From NCBI GenBank assembly GCA_965205015.1, contig OZ242029.1, positions 544,001-608,000 on the forward strand: a stretch of DNA of 64,000 nucleotides. Direction: 5' to 3'. A program made the position numbers and the translations under genes. The first letter of the stretch is position 1. The number at the start of each line of letters is the position of its first letter. This stretch comes from Candidatus Poribacteria bacterium. Its GTDB lineage: Bacteria; Poribacteria; WGA-4E; WGA-3G. Under the pieces are notes generated by a model. The model was given only the letters and a program-made list of their open reading frames with translations. It was not told where the DNA came from and searched no databases. Positions 22,595 through 61,586 of this stretch are shown here, piece after piece.

Positions 22595-22765
22595 CGAATT
22601 ACCTCCAAGAGATCATGAAAAAACAAATTTCCTTTTCCGTCTGAACTCCATTCTAATAGATTTTCGCTTTTGTTTCAAGGGAATAGTCGGTTTTGGAATC
22701 CCAATGCTTTAGCTTTGGGAGGAAAATCCGCCCTCTTGGAAAGGACCAAAACGTTCATTTTTCCC

Positions 22766-22795
22766 TTGACATTTGGTCCGAAAGTGTGTTAGAAT
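22766..22795 (+). promoter_or_regulatory. Sigma70 promoter of tnpB element 1 (TTGACA-18-TAGAAT, extended -10)
   Basis: ttgaca tttggtccgaaagtgtgt tagaat. Confidence 0.65.
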
Positions 22796-22799
22796 TAGA

Positions 22800-22881
22800 G
22801 TATCAGGTTGGCAAGTATTATCAGCGTTACCGCTTGGTAACGTACTTGCCTCCCACTGATAAGGGGATAAACACCTGATAC
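22800..22881 (+). ncRNA. Putative pseudoknotted 5'-leader RNA motif (copy 1)
   Basis: P1 gtatcaggt/acctgatac; P2 ggcaagta/tacttgcc; P3 cgttacc/ggtaacg; P4 tccc/ggga. The bulge ttatcag is complementary to the P4 loop ctgataa. Confidence 0.65.
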
Positions 22882-22891
22882 CTGATATACC

Positions 22892-24121
22892 ATGAAATTA
22901 ACTTTTAAGTATCCTGTGTATCCTACCAGAACACAGGAACAAACAGTGTTAGCGTGGCTTGACCACCTGTGTGACCTTCAGAACTCTGCTCGCCACGATC
23001 GCAAGGTAGCGTTAGAAGTTGAAGATCGTTTCGTCACGCTCTCCGAACAGCAAGACAAGTTAACAGCCGCTCGTGAGAAATATGACGACTTCCGAGAAGT
23101 GCCACAAGATTTCCAAAATCACGCCCTGCGAAGAAACGATAAAGCCTTTACTGCCTTCCGCAAACGTTGTAAAGAAAACGCTGCGAAAAAAGGGTATCCT
23201 CGCTACAAAAAGCGTGTCCGTTCTCTGACGTGGAGCCTTCGCAAATATACGAAAGTGGTTCGTCGAAAGACCAAAGACGCTGAAAAACAGACGCTACGCG
23301 TTCGCGAGAATCCAATCATAGAAACGCCCTTTCGCCATAACCGCTTGAAAGTGCCAAAGTTGGGTGAAGTCAAGATACGCATGCACCGCCCGCTTGAAGG
23401 GGATCCCAAAGAAGTTACGCTCGTGAAAAAAGCAAGTGGCTGGTATGCTCATATTACCTGTGAACTCCCCGATACTCCGAAAGTTGAACCGACAGCTGCG
23501 ATCGCTGTTGACGTTGGCACAACGCACTATCTGACGACTTCCGAAGGCGAAAAGGAAGATAACCCGCGCTGGTATCGCCAAGCAGAAGGACTGCTCCACA
23601 AACATAATCAGACGATGGCCCGCCGTAAAAAAGGGAGCAACCGCTGGTATAAAGCCGTGCATGCCGTTGCCTTGCACCATGAGCGAACTGCTAACAAACG
23701 CAAAGACTTTATCGGTAAACTCGTCTACAAACTTTTTCATCATTGCGGAAAGCACGTCCTCGTTGCGGAGGACTTGCAAACCTCTAACATGGTTCAGAAT
23801 AAGCACCTCAGCAAGAGCATTTCGGATGCGTCTTGGGGTATCTTCTTTCAGTGGTGTGGGAACATAGCCGAAAGAGACGGTTTCCACGTCCACCAAGTGA
23901 ATCCCAAAAACACTTCGCAAACCTGCTCTGCTTGTGGTAAGAAGTCGCCAAAGAAACTCTCTTTAGCGATACGGACCTTTGATTGTAGTTTTTGTGGCAC
24001 TTCGTTAGACCGAGACCACAACGCTGCGATAAACATACTTTTGCGGGCGGCTTGCGCCCATCGTGGAGAGCGTTGGGTTACCAACCTCTGTGAAACGAGA
24101 AACTTACCGGTAGACCGGTAG
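22892..24121 (+). CDS. tnpB: RNA-guided endonuclease TnpB (InsQ family)
   Basis: RuvC residues intact: 'AVDVG', 'VAEDL', 'DRDHNAAINI'. Zn ribbon CSAC...CSFC. Confidence 0.95.
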   Translation: MKLTFKYPVYPTRTQEQTVLAWLDHLCDLQNSARHDRKVALEVEDRFVTLSEQQDKLTAAREKYDDFREVPQDFQNHALRRNDKAFTAFRKRCKENAAKKGYPRYKKRVRSLTWSLRKYTKVVRRKTKDAEKQTLRVRENPIIETPFRHNRLKVPKLGEVKIRMHRPLEGDPKEVTLVKKASGWYAHITCELPDTPKVEPTAAIAVDVGTTHYLTTSEGEKEDNPRWYRQAEGLLHKHNQTMARRKKGSNRWYKAVHAVALHHERTANKRKDFIGKLVYKLFHHCGKHVLVAEDLQTSNMVQNKHLSKSISDASWGIFFQWCGNIAERDGFHVHQVNPKNTSQTCSACGKKSPKKLSLAIRTFDCSFCGTSLDRDHNAAINILLRAACAHRGERWVTNLCETRNLPVDR

Positions 24122-24190
24122 GCTTGTTAACACTCTTAACAAGCCAAAGTCTTTAGACTTGGGTACATTGACTACCTCAAATCTTACAGA
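24040..24190 (+). ncRNA. Predicted omegaRNA of tnpB element 1 (boundaries approximate)
   Basis: Stem-loops overlap the tnpB 3' end and the RE hairpin. The guide would begin at 24173 (tacctcaaatcttaca). Position follows established TnpB biology. Confidence 0.6.
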
Positions 24191-24895: not shown

Positions 24896-24935
24896 ACCAG
24901 CAGAATTCACAAACATTAGCCCGTAATGTAATGAA

Positions 24936-25050
24936 GGGGTTTTTGCTTGGGGTCTTTGCTTGGGGTTTTTGCTTGGGGTCTTTGCTTGGGGTTTTTGCTT
25001 GGGTGTTTCTGCGGATTTCTGCGGATTTCTGCGGATTTCTGCGGATTTCT
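24936..25050. repeat. Compound tandem repeat: 5x 13-mer ggggtYtttgctt plus 4.5x 10-mer tttctgcgga
   Basis: Read directly at 24936-25000 and 25006-25050, inside a copy of the dispersed repeat. Confidence 0.95.
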
Positions 25051-26782: not shown

Positions 26783-26812
26783 TTACGAGTAGGTCCTCGG
26801 TTTTAAGAAACC

Positions 26813-26901
26813 GTAGCCCGTAATGTAATGGAGGGCGGCTCTACGGAAAGGCACATCAATATCCAAACCCGTCTGACCGAACCGCAAGGAAAATTTAAAA
26901 T
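26813..26901 (+). repeat. Dispersed ~85-bp intergenic repeat (copy B)
   Basis: gcccgtaatgtaatgga...ccgcaaggaaaatttaaaa aligns over its full length with 61500-61586. Partial copies at 24917-25118, about 31000-31044 and 59529-59590(-). Confidence 0.75.
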
Positions 26902-28368: not shown

Positions 28369-28530
28369 CACCTTGTGATACTACCCAACGCCTAAAGGCG
28401 TGGGCTTCGGTTTCATAGCGATTGCGGTTTTCGCTCAAGCGTCCACCGTCTTACTATCGCTCCACCAGCAGGCTCTTATTCCGAATCAGATCGGTTTTAT
28501 CTGGCTTAGGTCCAGGGTACCCCAGCCCGC
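28355..28530 (-). ncRNA. Predicted omegaRNA of tnpB element 2 (boundaries approximate)
   Basis: About 155 nt from the tnpB 3' end to the RE are conserved with 50383-50540. The guide would be aaggtgctaccgctcccg. Confidence 0.65.
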
Positions 28531-29682
28531 AAAATGTTTATCGCAGCGTTTATATCTCTGTCGTGGTGTGAACCACAGTCAGAACACGTCCACTCCCTAT
28601 CTGAAAGTGTTAGGGTTTTGTTGTGATAGCCACAATCCGAACAGGGTTTTGTTGTGGCTTCCCAACGTCCCGCTTTCAATAACGTTTTACCATATTTGGC
28701 ACATGTCCATTGGAGGATCCATGAGAACTCACCAAAAGCAAGGTCAGAGATTTTTCGTCCCCACAGGCGTTTCATACCCGATAGGTTCAGCGTCTCAATC
28801 GCAATCTTATCGTATCTACGCACAAGGCGGAGTGCCAACTTGAAAAACCAATCTCGTCTTCTATTGGCTATATCCTTATTGACGCGTGCGAGGTGTCGTT
28901 TGGCACGAAACCAGCCATTAGAAAGATACTGCTTACGAGAGAGTGTCTTGTTTGCGGAACAAATTTCATTGAGACTTTGCTTGAAAAACTCTGGTGAGGC
29001 TATCTTGATACCGTCTGAAAGGGTCAGAAACGTCTTCATACCGAAGTCTGCCCCTGCCGCATTACTGGTCAGTGGGAGTTTTTCGGCGGGTTCTGAACCT
29101 TCACAACTGAGATACAAGTGATAGTCGCCCACAGGATCACGCTTGATTGTTACCGTCTTTATCGTTCCAGTCCATTCACGGTGTTTCCAAAACGTGAACG
29201 ACTTCTTCAGACACTTGATATGAATGCGATTGTCTTTTATCTCATAACCTGCTTGCGTGAACGTCAATGAGTTATACTTGTGTTGTGGCTTTATCTGTGG
29301 CTTGCCGACTTTACGCGGTGATAATCCTTTCTTTTTAGCATCAAGATAGTCAAAGAACTTTTCATAGCCGAGATGGATACGCTTGGCAACCTGTTGTATA
29401 ACTTGGCTCGGTAGTTGTTTCCAATGCGGTTTCGTCCGACGCTTTAACTTCGTTATATGCGAGCAGATACGCCCAAAGGACGCATACTTGCCATAGATAC
29501 GATAATAGCGTCTCTGCAATAAAAGCAAGTGGACATGCACGCCATGCAAGTCGTCAAGCAGATTCCCCATCTGTATGAGATTCGACTGATGATAAAACTC
29601 ATATTTTTCAGTTTTCATGGATTCCCACGTATCACGCCTTTTACCCCAGCTAAAGCATTGGGACCTGACGCCCGAAGTCCCG
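28375..29682 (-). mobile_element. IS200/IS605-family (tnpA-less) element 2
   Basis: On the minus strand: TTTA|cg...AGGT-cccaatgctttagctgggg (LE), tnpB, then GAAG-cccacgcctttaggcgttggg-tagtaTCAC (RE). Ends are shared with the 50383-50827 mini-element. Confidence 0.82.
28506..29618 (-). CDS. tnpB: RNA-guided endonuclease TnpB
   Basis: RuvC 'GADFG', 'IAIETL', 'DRDINAAINI'. Zn ribbon CSDC...CSDC. Confidence 0.95.
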   Translation of the reverse strand: MKTEKYEFYHQSNLIQMGNLLDDLHGVHVHLLLLQRRYYRIYGKYASFGRICSHITKLKRRTKPHWKQLPSQVIQQVAKRIHLGYEKFFDYLDAKKKGLSPRKVGKPQIKPQHKYNSLTFTQAGYEIKDNRIHIKCLKKSFTFWKHREWTGTIKTVTIKRDPVGDYHLYLSCEGSEPAEKLPLTSNAAGADFGMKTFLTLSDGIKIASPEFFKQSLNEICSANKTLSRKQYLSNGWFRAKRHLARVNKDIANRRRDWFFKLALRLVRRYDKIAIETLNLSGMKRLWGRKISDLAFGEFSWILQWTCAKYGKTLLKAGRWEATTKPCSDCGYHNKTLTLSDREWTCSDCGSHHDRDINAAINILRAGVPWT

Positions 29683-49603: not shown

Positions 49604-50218
49604 TTAATATATCCACTGAATGCCTTTTGCAATCAGAATTTTCCGCAGTTCCTCGGTGCACCGAAAAATCCAAATTTTCACAGTGCCGTCCTTGCGGTTG
49701 AGAATGCGGGCAATCTCTGCGATACTATAGCCTTCCAAGTGCCGTAACATCCACGCAATCCGATGATTTGGTTTCGTTACCTGTTCAAGGGCACCTTCCA
49801 AAATCTGTTGTGCTTCTGCGGCTTCTAATTCTTGCTCGGGACCTGGGCGCGGGTCCTCGTATTTACTCAGCGGCTGTTCATCCTCATCAGGTGAACCACT
49901 GAGCGGGTGTTCCCGGATCCTGTCCCGCTTGCGTATCGCATCGATAATCGTATTTCGCGCTACCGTATTTAACCACGCCTGAAAACTACCCTGCTCTGTG
50001 TCCCATTTGCCCAGCTTCTGCCAAACTTTAACGAACACATCCGAGGCAACCTCTTCAGCATCTTGATAATTTCCAAGCATTCGGTAGGCTTTATTATAAA
50101 CCCACTTATAATGCTTGTCGAACAATTGCCTAAACGCGGCTTCGTTGCCTGCTTTCGCTTGCGTCGCGAGATAGGTATCTTCGACAGCAGATAAGTCATT
50201 AGATATTTGGCGCGCCAT
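49604..50218 (-). CDS. ECF-family RNA polymerase sigma-70 factor
   Basis: 'AF..LFDKH', 'DAEEVASDVFVKVW', 'SFQAWL..VARN..ID', region 4 'LRHLEGYSIAEIA......GTVK'. Confidence 0.93.
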   Translation of the reverse strand: MARQISNDLSAVEDTYLATQAKAGNEAAFRQLFDKHYKWVYNKAYRMLGNYQDAEEVASDVFVKVWQKLGKWDTEQGSFQAWLNTVARNTIIDAIRKRDRIREHPLSGSPDEDEQPLSKYEDPRPGPEQELEAAEAQQILEGALEQVTKPNHRIAWMLRHLEGYSIAEIARILNRKDGTVKIWIFRCTEELRKILIAKGIQWIY

Positions 50219-50362
50219 TCAAATCTGCTCCTTCGCCTATAAGGATCTACTCTTCCGCCTATAAGGACCCTTTTCAGCAGGCTATGCAATGTAACGTCAA
50301 TGAATTCGATAACGTTTCAAAAAAGGAAAAGAGTGGCACGCTGTAGAGAATTAACGCGCTAC

Positions 50363-50540
50363 CAACGTTCACTAATAGACTTGTGATACTACCCAACGCC
50401 TAAAGGCGTGGGCTTCGGTTTCATAGCAACTGCGTTCTTCCGAAAGGGTTGAACGTCTTATTATCGCTCCACCCGTAGGCTCTTATTCCGAATCAGATCG
50501 GCTTTATCTGGTTTATGCCCAGGGTACCCCAGCCTACAAA
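50363..50540 (-). ncRNA. Orphan omegaRNA scaffold plus flanking guide (predicted)
   Basis: Homologous to the tnpB2 3' end and RE. The tnpB relic reads ttgTAGgctggggtaccctgggcaTAA. The guide would be aagtctattagtgaacgttg. Confidence 0.62.
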
Positions 50541-50641
50541 GAATGAATGAGAGGGTACCGATACAAGGCGTTGGGTCATTACGCCACAATCGACTTACAG
50601 GAACGATACCCGAAATGTATTTTAGAGTGATTGCGCACTTC

Positions 50642-50716
50642 GCACTCTATGCCCTTCTCACGGGGCGGTTAGGACTCTGCCAGAGATTGGCAGAGGTGAG
50701 AACCCTAACCAAGTGC
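50642..50716 (-). ncRNA. Putative pseudoknotted RNA motif (copy 2)
   Basis: P1 gcactt/gagtgc; P2 ggttaggg/tcctaacc; P3 ctctgcca/tggcagag; P4 gccc/gggc. The bulge ttctcac is complementary to the P4 loop gtgagaa. Confidence 0.65.
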
Positions 50717-50723
50717 TGATACA

Positions 50724-50752
50724 AGTATACTACAATTTACTGTGAATGTCAA
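50724..50752 (-). promoter_or_regulatory. Near-consensus sigma70 promoter inside the mini-element
   Basis: Minus strand ttgaca ttcacagtaaattgtag tatact (17-nt spacer). Confidence 0.75.
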
Positions 50753-50845
50753 GTTTATTTTTGATTTTCAACGATTAACGATATTAGACCCAACGCTAAA
50801 GCATTGGGACCTGTTAAGGGAGGATCGTAAAAACTAAAATGATCT

Positions 50846-51724
50846 CTATGAAACACTTCCCAGAACAATCCGTTCCTTCCCCGCATAGTCTTTGCGCAGT
50901 TCATACGTGGAATAGGCAGATTCAGCATCAAGAAGCGTGCGAACGGTGTCGGCTTGCGTCGCACCAATTTCAAGGATAAGCTTTCCACTCGGTGCGAGAT
51001 ATTTCGGTGCCTCAGCAATTAATCGACGAATAACGTCAAGACCGTCATCTCCAGCAAAGAGGGCAATTTCGGGTTCATGGTCCCGGACATCTGGACTCAA
51101 GGTGTCACGCTCCGTATTTTTGATATAGGGTGGATTGGAGGCTATCCAATCAAATTGGGCATCCCCATTCGCACATATTGCGTCTACTGGTTCAAACAGG
51201 TCTCCAGACAAAAACTTAATTTGCGCTGCGGAGGCGTGCGTTTCAGCGTTCTTTCGGGCAACGGCGAGAGCGGGATCAGAGATGTCCGTCGCAACGATCT
51301 CCCATTCTGGTTGTTGCACGGCAAGACTCGTCGCAATTACACCACTTCCTGTACCGAGTTCCAGTAAACGTTGGGAATTTCCGGCTTCTGTTGTGAGGAT
51401 CGTTTCAACGAGCTGTTCTGTCTCCGGGCGCGGAATGAGGACCCGTTCATCCACATAGAAATCCAAGGACATAAACTCCTTGCGATTCGTGAGGTAGCTA
51501 ACAGGTGTACGCGCGATTCTCTTTTTTATTAACTCTCGGAACGGTGTGAGGTGTTCTTGAAAGACGGGCATTTCAAAATGGAGATAGAGTTGCAGGCGGC
51601 TTTTTTCGAGCAGATGCCCAAGCAATACCTCAGCATCTAATCTCGGATTTGGGATGTCGTGCTGTTGGAAGTATTCCGCTGTCCAATCGAGCAGATCCAC
51701 TACGCGCCACATTTTACTCGGCAT
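50846..51724 (-). CDS. prmC: Release factor glutamine methyltransferase
   Basis: 'VLIPRPETE', 'ELGTGSG', 'SNPPYI'. Follows prfA. Confidence 0.96.
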   Translation of the reverse strand: MPSKMWRVVDLLDWTAEYFQQHDIPNPRLDAEVLLGHLLEKSRLQLYLHFEMPVFQEHLTPFRELIKKRIARTPVSYLTNRKEFMSLDFYVDERVLIPRPETEQLVETILTTEAGNSQRLLELGTGSGVIATSLAVQQPEWEIVATDISDPALAVARKNAETHASAAQIKFLSGDLFEPVDAICANGDAQFDWIASNPPYIKNTERDTLSPDVRDHEPEIALFAGDDGLDVIRRLIAEAPKYLAPSGKLILEIGATQADTVRTLLDAESAYSTYELRKDYAGKERIVLGSVS

Positions 51725-61499: not shown

Positions 61500-61586
61500 A
61501 GCCTGTAATGTAATGGAAGGCGATTCATAAGAAAGGCACTTCAAATATGAAACCCACTTGAGAACTCCGCAAGGTAAAATTAAAAA
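61500..61586 (+). repeat. Dispersed ~85-bp intergenic repeat (copy E)
   Basis: Aligns with 26816-26900. Its end overlaps the stop codon of the Sdh anchor gene. Confidence 0.75.

Follow-up and report, generated by a model that had tools for sequence, protein, structure and literature searches.

The 64-kb stretch of DNA analysed here, referred to as the window, belongs to a Poribacteria (sponge-symbiont) chromosome. It holds two tnpB elements, element 1 (22690-24170) and element 2 (28375-29681), and, at 50383-50827, a mini-element of 445 bases that is read on the minus strand and has a gene for an ECF sigma factor downstream of it (Table 1). The closest relatives of the window TnpB all come from Poribacteria MAGs.

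Table 1. Parts of the mini-element and its immediate surroundings, in window coordinates
Feature	Position	Strand	Basis or remark
Target/TAM TTTA	50828-50831	-	outside the element, directly 5' of the left end; from sequence
Left end (LE) with subterminal imperfect hairpin	50787-50827	-	hairpin GGTCCCAATGC-TTTA-GCGTTGGGTC at 50787-50811
Sigma-70-type promoter TTGACA-17-TATACT	50724-50752	-	score 11/12
5' leader (~100 nt), pseudoknotted	50625-50716	-	covariation; leader model R1
P1 5' strand GCACTT	50711-50716	-	leader fold
P2	50704-50710 / 50667-50673	-	leader fold
P3 hairpin	50688-50695 / 50675-50682	-	leader fold
Pseudoknot: internal loop TTCTCAC with GTGAGAA	50696-50702 / 50655-50661	-	GTGAGAA is the loop of a small hairpin, P4
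Tandem P1 partners GAGTGC, AAGTGC	50642-50647, 50635-50640	-	the second lies within a short hairpin ending at 50625
tnpB start remnant ACCACTCTAAAA, then mid module	50535-50624	-	colinearity with full-length copies
omegaRNA scaffold core (~152 nt), including right-end (RE) hairpin 50391-50413	50383-50534	-	87-93% identity to element 2
Element right terminus ...TATCAC	50383	-	near-identical copies in other genomes
Would-be guide, flanking DNA AAGTCTATTAGTGAACGTTG	50363-50382	-	adjoins RE boundary; upstream region of ECF sigma gene
ECF sigma-factor gene	49604-50218	-	same strand as the mini-element, downstream of it

Ends of the mini-element and the proteins it would borrow

Subterminal imperfect hairpins are found at both ends of the mini-element, and both match element 2. 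The LE hairpin contains a 19-nt run (CAGGTCCCAATGCTTTAGC) common to the LE of element 2, and the RE side aligns with element 2 at 93% identity over 61 nt (50380-50440 against 28372-28432) and, in a further block, at 87% over 97 nt (50444-50540 against 28437-28533). There is also an inverted match between the LE of the mini-element and that of element 1. The boundaries, TTNA followed by CG... on the left and ...TATCAC on the right, were fixed by near-identical copies in two other genomes. TTAA, TTTA or TTCA stands directly before the first base of six near-identical copies, the right flanks of which are unrelated; in these six as in the window copy the element sits on the 3' side of a short conserved motif and has not duplicated its target. 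With both window TnpBs as queries, tblastn revealed no TnpB similarity in the mini-element, whose longest ORF is 58 aa. A comparison of 40 related copies gave no conserved ORF either, the longest ones measuring 36 to 124 aa and varying in strand and place. A preliminary description of this DNA had placed a protein-less element with an LE hairpin at these very coordinates, had matched its RE/omegaRNA part to element 2 and had read its guide (AAGTCTATTAGTGAACG) from the flank; the near-identical copies settle the boundary that this guide adjoins, and the locus is as described in each of these respects.

We thus favor, with a probability of roughly 0.7, the view that the mini-element is a non-autonomous, protein-less derivative of an IS200/IS605 transposon (PATE-like) that descended from a tnpB-only element. 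tnpB-only elements of IS200/IS605 are of the IS1341 type, with ISDra2 and IS608 as the mechanistic models. As its parents, such elements would share with it the ends, the target rule (they insert 3' of a short motif and leave no duplication) and the position of the omegaRNA, and they differ from it in the ~1.1-kb tnpB frame that the mini-element has lost.

Both proteins would have to come from elsewhere, as the preliminary description had it. No TnpA (Y1 transposase, PF01797) occurs within the 64-kb window, and matches over the PF01797 cut-off occur in 154 of the 175 Poribacteria genomes, mostly as open frames of ~141 aa; the one in L174 has 139 aa. One PF01797 frame lies ~2.6 kb from one of the gene-less copies (L088). 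At that locus (G005:C1 4930780-4933985, which takes in L088 and L174) a tnpA-bearing element stops ~1 kb before a gene-less copy, and a transposase source and a mini-element are here found side by side.

As for TnpB, the protein of element 2 (TnpB2) aligns with ISDra2 TnpB (8bf8) at an E value of 2.3e-46, and the alignment with this top match displays three RuvC motifs (D, E, D) and both CxxC pairs, which agrees with the earlier claim that TnpB2 should be catalytically intact. Element 1 has its LE near 22699 and encodes, at 22892-24121, a TnpB of 409 aa that is ~30% identical to TnpB2; its ATG is preceded by TTGACA-17-TAGAAT and then by a pseudoknotted leader of the same architecture as that of the mini-element (fold z-score -6.1; 38.9 bits with the leader model R1 introduced below). 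The RE of element 1 terminates in ...ACATTGAC. BLAST found no match between the 3' end of element 1 and minis with a short scaffold, which are for this reason left unassigned to the element-1 type.

Promoter, scaffold and pseudoknotted leader

The promoter of the mini-element is the sole sigma-70-like site in 50200-51000. Shuffled sequences give a mean of 1.3 such sites, so a single one is by itself within chance, and its weight comes from conservation across copies: of 55 distinct copies, 52 have a sigma-70 match of at least 9/12 at the equivalent position; the spacer is 17 nt in 49 and the score a perfect 12/12 in 20 of the 55. On these counts the promoter is conserved across the gene-less copies. 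The same order, LE - promoter - pseudoknot - ATG, is seen in full-length relatives, of which L090 is a complete example. From Poribacteria genomes we took 80 loci of the TnpB2 family and inspected 78 upstream regions by eye; by this inspection the ATG is closely preceded in 71 of the 78 by the promoter, the pseudoknot and a tandem pair of 3' strands, and L030, L042, L047, L065, L073, L074 and L075 are the exceptions. The preliminary description had correctly recognised the promoter and the pseudoknot motif and had taken them to stand in place of tnpB. The latter part has to be abandoned, since in the full-length relatives they make up the native 5' region of tnpB and would represent the normal arrangement of the family rather than any special build. 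In two of the exceptions (L073 and L074, both full-length) the promoter abuts the ATG (CTTGACAATCTT ATG) and there is no leader; their transcript could be leaderless or differently started.

Element 2 itself has no promoter-like site between LE and ATG (29619-29681), which upholds the earlier statement that promoter and full leader are missing there. Its LE hairpin runs directly into ...GGGGTAAAAGGCGTGATACGTGGGAATCC ATG, in which ~32 nt from the 3' end of such a family leader survive, and element 2 thus lost its promoter and pseudoknot through an internal deletion. With the promoter gone, expression of TnpB2 may depend on read-through.

What follows the leader in the mini-element likewise derives from tnpB. 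Its ACCACTCTAAAA aligns with ...ACC ATG AAA AC of the full-length copies, and the mid module is colinear with the 3' coding region of tnpB (zinc-finger D-C-G ... I-L-x-A-G); this start remnant and the colinear mid module together mark the mini-element as an internal deletion of tnpB. The mid module, which had been described as a further stem among the parts in place of tnpB, is by its colinearity the former 3' end of that gene: ~95 nt, decayed, that form the 5' part of the scaffold. The last tnpB codons can, as had been noted, still be read in the frame of element 2 and contain a stop, a TAG within 50513-50544 where element 2 has CGG. The outer part of the stem as first described, GGGTATCG/CGGTACCC (50604-50611 / 50553-50560), is real, in that 3 of its 7 pairs covary in relatives, whereas the inner GGCGT/ACGCC pairing is confined to this copy, the family pairing other bases in the hairpin that the outer stem encloses. 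For the corresponding coding stretch of full-length copies the same nested topology is predicted, with almost no covariation, and we infer that this fold is the equivalent of the mid module.

For the scaffold, a joint alignment of 16 full-length and 9 gene-less copies was folded with RNAalifold, which predicts 36 pairs and shows compensatory change in 10. Element 2 and the window copy each retain 35 of the 36, and both have the same C-A mismatch at the remaining pair. A variant helix of the window scaffold (GTTCAAC.../...GAACGC) recurs in the full-length copies L006 and L079. Judged by homology and by the conserved fold that it shares with the 3' end of intact tnpB, ending at the RE, the scaffold corresponds to the omegaRNA of TnpB, in line with the preliminary description.

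The leader deserves a closer look. Leader sequences were gathered by BLAST-anchored extraction, and a covariance model, R1, was built on 37 gene-less leaders; the window copy, with its pseudoknot at 50651-50716, scores 92.5 bits with it. Among the 37 gene-less leaders 95.9% of cells are paired, 21 of 26 pairs show compensatory change on both sides and 5 of the 7 pairs of the pseudoknot helix covary. In 41 full-length leaders the corresponding figures are 97.1% of cells, 21 of 30 pairs changed on both sides and 6 of 7 covarying pseudoknot pairs, with up to four pair types, and slid registers are paired at 23-44%. The covariation score was reached by 0/500 shuffles in either set, where the shuffles ignore relatedness and the counts are taken on related sequences. 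A second copy of the P1 partner, 7 nt further on, pairs equally well with the 5' strand (93.0% of cells), and both tandem partners covary in the full-length copies. Two such partners are present in 50 of 57 distinct gene-less leaders, and the words change together: GCACTT occurs with GAGTGC/AAGTGC, ACTTGC with GCAAGT twice, and GACACT with AGTGTC twice. On this covariation the leader is a real structure, with a pseudoknot that is maintained by compensatory change.

Rfam 15 returned 0 matches at gathering score across the whole window and chance-level matches only at E values up to 10 over 50300-50900, and the leader fits no curated family. This holds also for the IS605-orfB-I RNA motif (RF03065), named in part of the text of the Rfam 15 paper, which resembles the leader in being a conserved structured RNA tied to IS605 orfB (tnpB) genes and differs in giving no match in either of these searches. 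An 18-nt word of the leader hit 10 loci in metagenomes, none of which fits the leader model, so these are chance matches. In the literature, as judged by titles and abstracts, figures and supplements aside, we found no description of a TnpB-linked 5' pseudoknot leader, and our search returned no paper treating both Poribacteria and TnpB. The shared 5' pseudoknot with its duplicated 3' strand may thus be a new part.

Could this leader be the actual purpose of the mini-element, which would then be a vehicle for a cis-acting RNA module, a switch or a stabilising fold, that operates independently of TnpB guiding? Compensatory change does keep the pseudoknot in the 37 protein-less copies, which have no translation to control, and the recurrence of two tandem partners 7 nt apart, both covarying in full-length copies, would suit such a module as well. 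So would the 85.5% identity between the leaders of the window copy and of another copy (L111) whose scaffold modules fail to align with those of the window copy, a mismatch that suggests module exchange. However, L122 (genome G114) and L164 (genome G111) have lost the whole pseudoknot through a deletion that reaches from the 5' strand to the second 3' partner (AGCAACTTGCAAGTGAGACC); both are otherwise near-identical to pseudoknot-bearing copies of the same genomes and sit at different loci, which indicates that the leader is unnecessary for spread. Moreover, the scaffold is conserved at least as well as the leader, no conserved unpaired bases hinting at a ligand pocket are seen in the leader alignments, and the failure to match any Rfam family also speaks against a module of this kind. 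We therefore give this explanation very little credence.

A further proposal, made tentatively and at well under even odds, is that the ~100-nt 5' module, with its 5'-terminal strand, its pair of nested helices, its loop-to-internal-loop pseudoknot and its tandem 3' partners set 7 nt apart, represents an undescribed class of cis-acting RNA in TnpB transposons and acts as a two-state device. In full-length copies it would gate translation of tnpB, since the AUG follows the second partner at a distance of 5-10 nt. Where the gene is missing, it would determine how stable the guide precursor is or how it is processed, which would explain why the leader is kept under selection with nothing left to translate. 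Rfam lacks this module, which is a candidate for a new RNA motif and is relevant to the little-understood control of TnpB and of guide production.

The family in Poribacteria and the insertion beside the sigma gene

Of 175 Poribacteria genomes, 54 gave BLAST matches to the central part of the mini-element (promoter to mid module), scoring being limited to 4 candidates in each genome, and R1 has matches in 84 of 150. Five complete genomes contain 10, 17, 16, 11 and 12 R1 matches, 66 altogether, of which 54 score at least 72 bits; full-length leaders score 24-47 bits with the same model. None of the best 30 R1 matches (0/30) has a TnpB within 1.5 kb, and in 27 of these 30 the RE end is reached 297-388 nt after the leader start, the remaining three being one match with an insertion of ~250 nt and two without a recognisable end. 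The mini-element thus belongs to a large, diversified, multi-copy family of the Poribacteria, with many gene-less copies, and is not the single decayed copy whose discovery the preliminary description had named as fatal to its proposal. In genomes G111 and G114 near-identical copies have unrelated flanks, and, on this evidence, show that the family has moved recently. In genome G173 the mid stem module of a gene-less copy (L128 / L190) is interrupted by ~250 nt of inserted sequence, which may be a small nested element.

The history of the window copy is less straightforward. A clean empty site, which had been suggested as something to look for in related genomes, was not found: in the 12 closest relatives, with flanks 90-92% identical, the spot of the mini-element is taken by a native spacer of 117 to ~350 nt. 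This spacer lies between prmC and the ECF sigma gene in these relatives (L140-L151), is missing from the window (50219-50382, 50828-50850) and, when tested as a repeat, proved to be single-copy in 3/3 genomes. With such a spacer in the relatives, the insertion history of the window copy is not that of a simple paste. In L140 the native spacer contains a perfect TTGACA-18-TATAAT (12/12) on the same strand, aimed at the ECF sigma gene. In the window a possible ECF-type motif (GAAAC, 17 nt, CGT) is seen, by reading only, within 50219-50382, upstream of the sigma gene.

One could argue from this missing empty site, from the lack of TnpA in the window and from the promoterless TnpB2 gene nearby that the mini-element is an inert relic, a dead product of deletion, without transcription or movement, that is now simply decaying. 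Decay, however, is hard to reconcile with a promoter that scores 11/12 here and is conserved across the family, with a scaffold that has lost a single one of its 36 pairs and with one of the highest-scoring leaders of the family. The recent movement of the family, evident from near-identical copies that relatives carry at different loci, also counts against it, and we consider a relic quite improbable.

A different possibility is that the mini-element has been co-opted locally and that its main role here is to supply the ECF sigma gene with a promoter and a 5' leader, in replacement of the native promoter. It occupies the position of a single-copy spacer that in L140 has its own perfect promoter on the same strand, and the only sigma-70-like site of the region now points at the sigma gene, so that the promoter of the mini-element may indeed feed that gene in the window. 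Read-through is moreover to be expected, because another TnpB, according to the passages of Nety et al. 2023 that concern this point, trims the 5' part of a longer RNA into the guide and leaves the 3' side unprocessed. On the other hand, the ECF-type motif, if it is one, would still be available to the sigma gene, and the family has no preference in orientation, the downstream frame being in the same direction in 11 and in the opposite direction in 17 of the 28 copies with enough flank (twelve further copies were dropped for short flank). The absence of orientation bias also led us to reject the idea that the family as a whole acts as a mobile promoter. As the main explanation of the mini-element, local co-option seems to us unlikely; as a local consequence, it can hold alongside the explanation of the element as a gene-less carrier of guide RNA. 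Positioned at the native-promoter spot of an ECF sigma gene, the mini-element offers a concrete case in which to ask whether elements of this kind rewire host transcription.

How the gene-less element may work, and how it compares with known systems

Under the preferred reading of the mini-element as a gene-less guide-RNA element, internal loss of nearly the whole tnpB frame would have produced it from a tnpB-only ancestor. It would have retained the left end, then the promoter and the pseudoknotted leader native to tnpB and a few tnpB start bases, together with the last ~95 nt of tnpB (non-coding, as the 5' scaffold stem), the omegaRNA core and the right end. RNA polymerase would start ~7 nt past the -10 box, near 50717, and synthesize a leader-scaffold RNA of ~335 nt that runs on into the flank. 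As for the leader, our best guess is that it forms a 5'-terminal fold that stabilises or gates this transcript. TnpB made by a full-length copy elsewhere would trim the 5' part, and the flank sequence would serve as the guide. TnpA from an autonomous copy would excise the mini-element and reinsert it after TTNA. Upon excision, the TnpB-guide complex would cut the rejoined TTTA-AAGTCTATTAG..., and repair from a sister copy would restore the element; this cut-and-restore step follows the model of Meers et al. 2023, transferred here to proteins supplied in trans.

With respect to expression, contigs from three sponge RNA libraries (two studies) cover the part of the scaffold at 50379-50540 that is shared with relatives, and two of them continue into sequence resembling the mid stem in the form that it has in related minis. 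As evidence of expression it is a weak hint, given that such libraries can hold DNA and that contigs cannot show transcript starts. Contigs at least 90% alike on 50565-50750 were not found in the three sponge RNA-library runs, which is uninformative either way: the unique flank 50255-50378 is almost uncovered in these runs, and so the strain may be absent from the samples.

A gene-less PATE that bears an omegaRNA and needs TnpB in trans is a kind of element already in print. Passages of the Meers et al. 2023 preprint (doi 10.1101/2023.03.14.532601) describe PATE-like gene-less elements that often encode omegaRNAs requiring TnpB in trans. The PATEs of Geobacillus stearothermophilus presented there resemble the Poribacteria family in having IS200/IS605 ends, no protein gene and an omegaRNA at the right end, and in needing TnpA and TnpB from another source. 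Compared by text rather than by figures, the Poribacteria family is set apart by keeping the tnpB promoter and a covarying pseudoknotted leader, and its 10-17 R1 matches per complete genome can be placed beside that example. The part of a 2026 OMEGA review that we consulted yielded nothing on promoter-bearing PATEs. A further relative is the PATE with IStron ends (Zedaveinyte et al. 2023, doi 10.1101/2023.11.20.567912), which is, in the portion of that text relevant here, likewise gene-less, of IS200/IS605 type and devoid of an ORF, and whose parent likewise combines an omegaRNA at the 3' end with a structured RNA in the 5' region. However, the 5' RNA of the IStron, a group I intron, removes the element from host transcripts by splicing, unlike the ~100-nt pseudoknot of the mini-element, which stands behind its own promoter and matches no Rfam family.

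The number of R1 matches in each of the five complete genomes, the conserved promoter of the copies and the spread of the family across the phylum show that transposon derivatives reduced to a guide RNA can thrive, and support the notion of TnpB, TnpA and guide RNAs as a shared pool that is used in trans. From a practical point of view, each copy represents a combination of scaffold, target motif and guide that can be tried with a matching compact TnpB.

Two repeats of the window, observed in passing, may be added. A motif of ~30-86 nt (…AGCCCGTAATGTAATGGAGGG…) occurs three times just upstream of genes, at 24906-24938, 26803-26900 and 61500-61585. At 24923-25050 two tandem arrays stand back to back, the first with a 13-nt unit (GGGGTYTTTGCTT, ~6 copies) and the second with a 10-nt unit (TTCTGCGGAT, ~4 copies).
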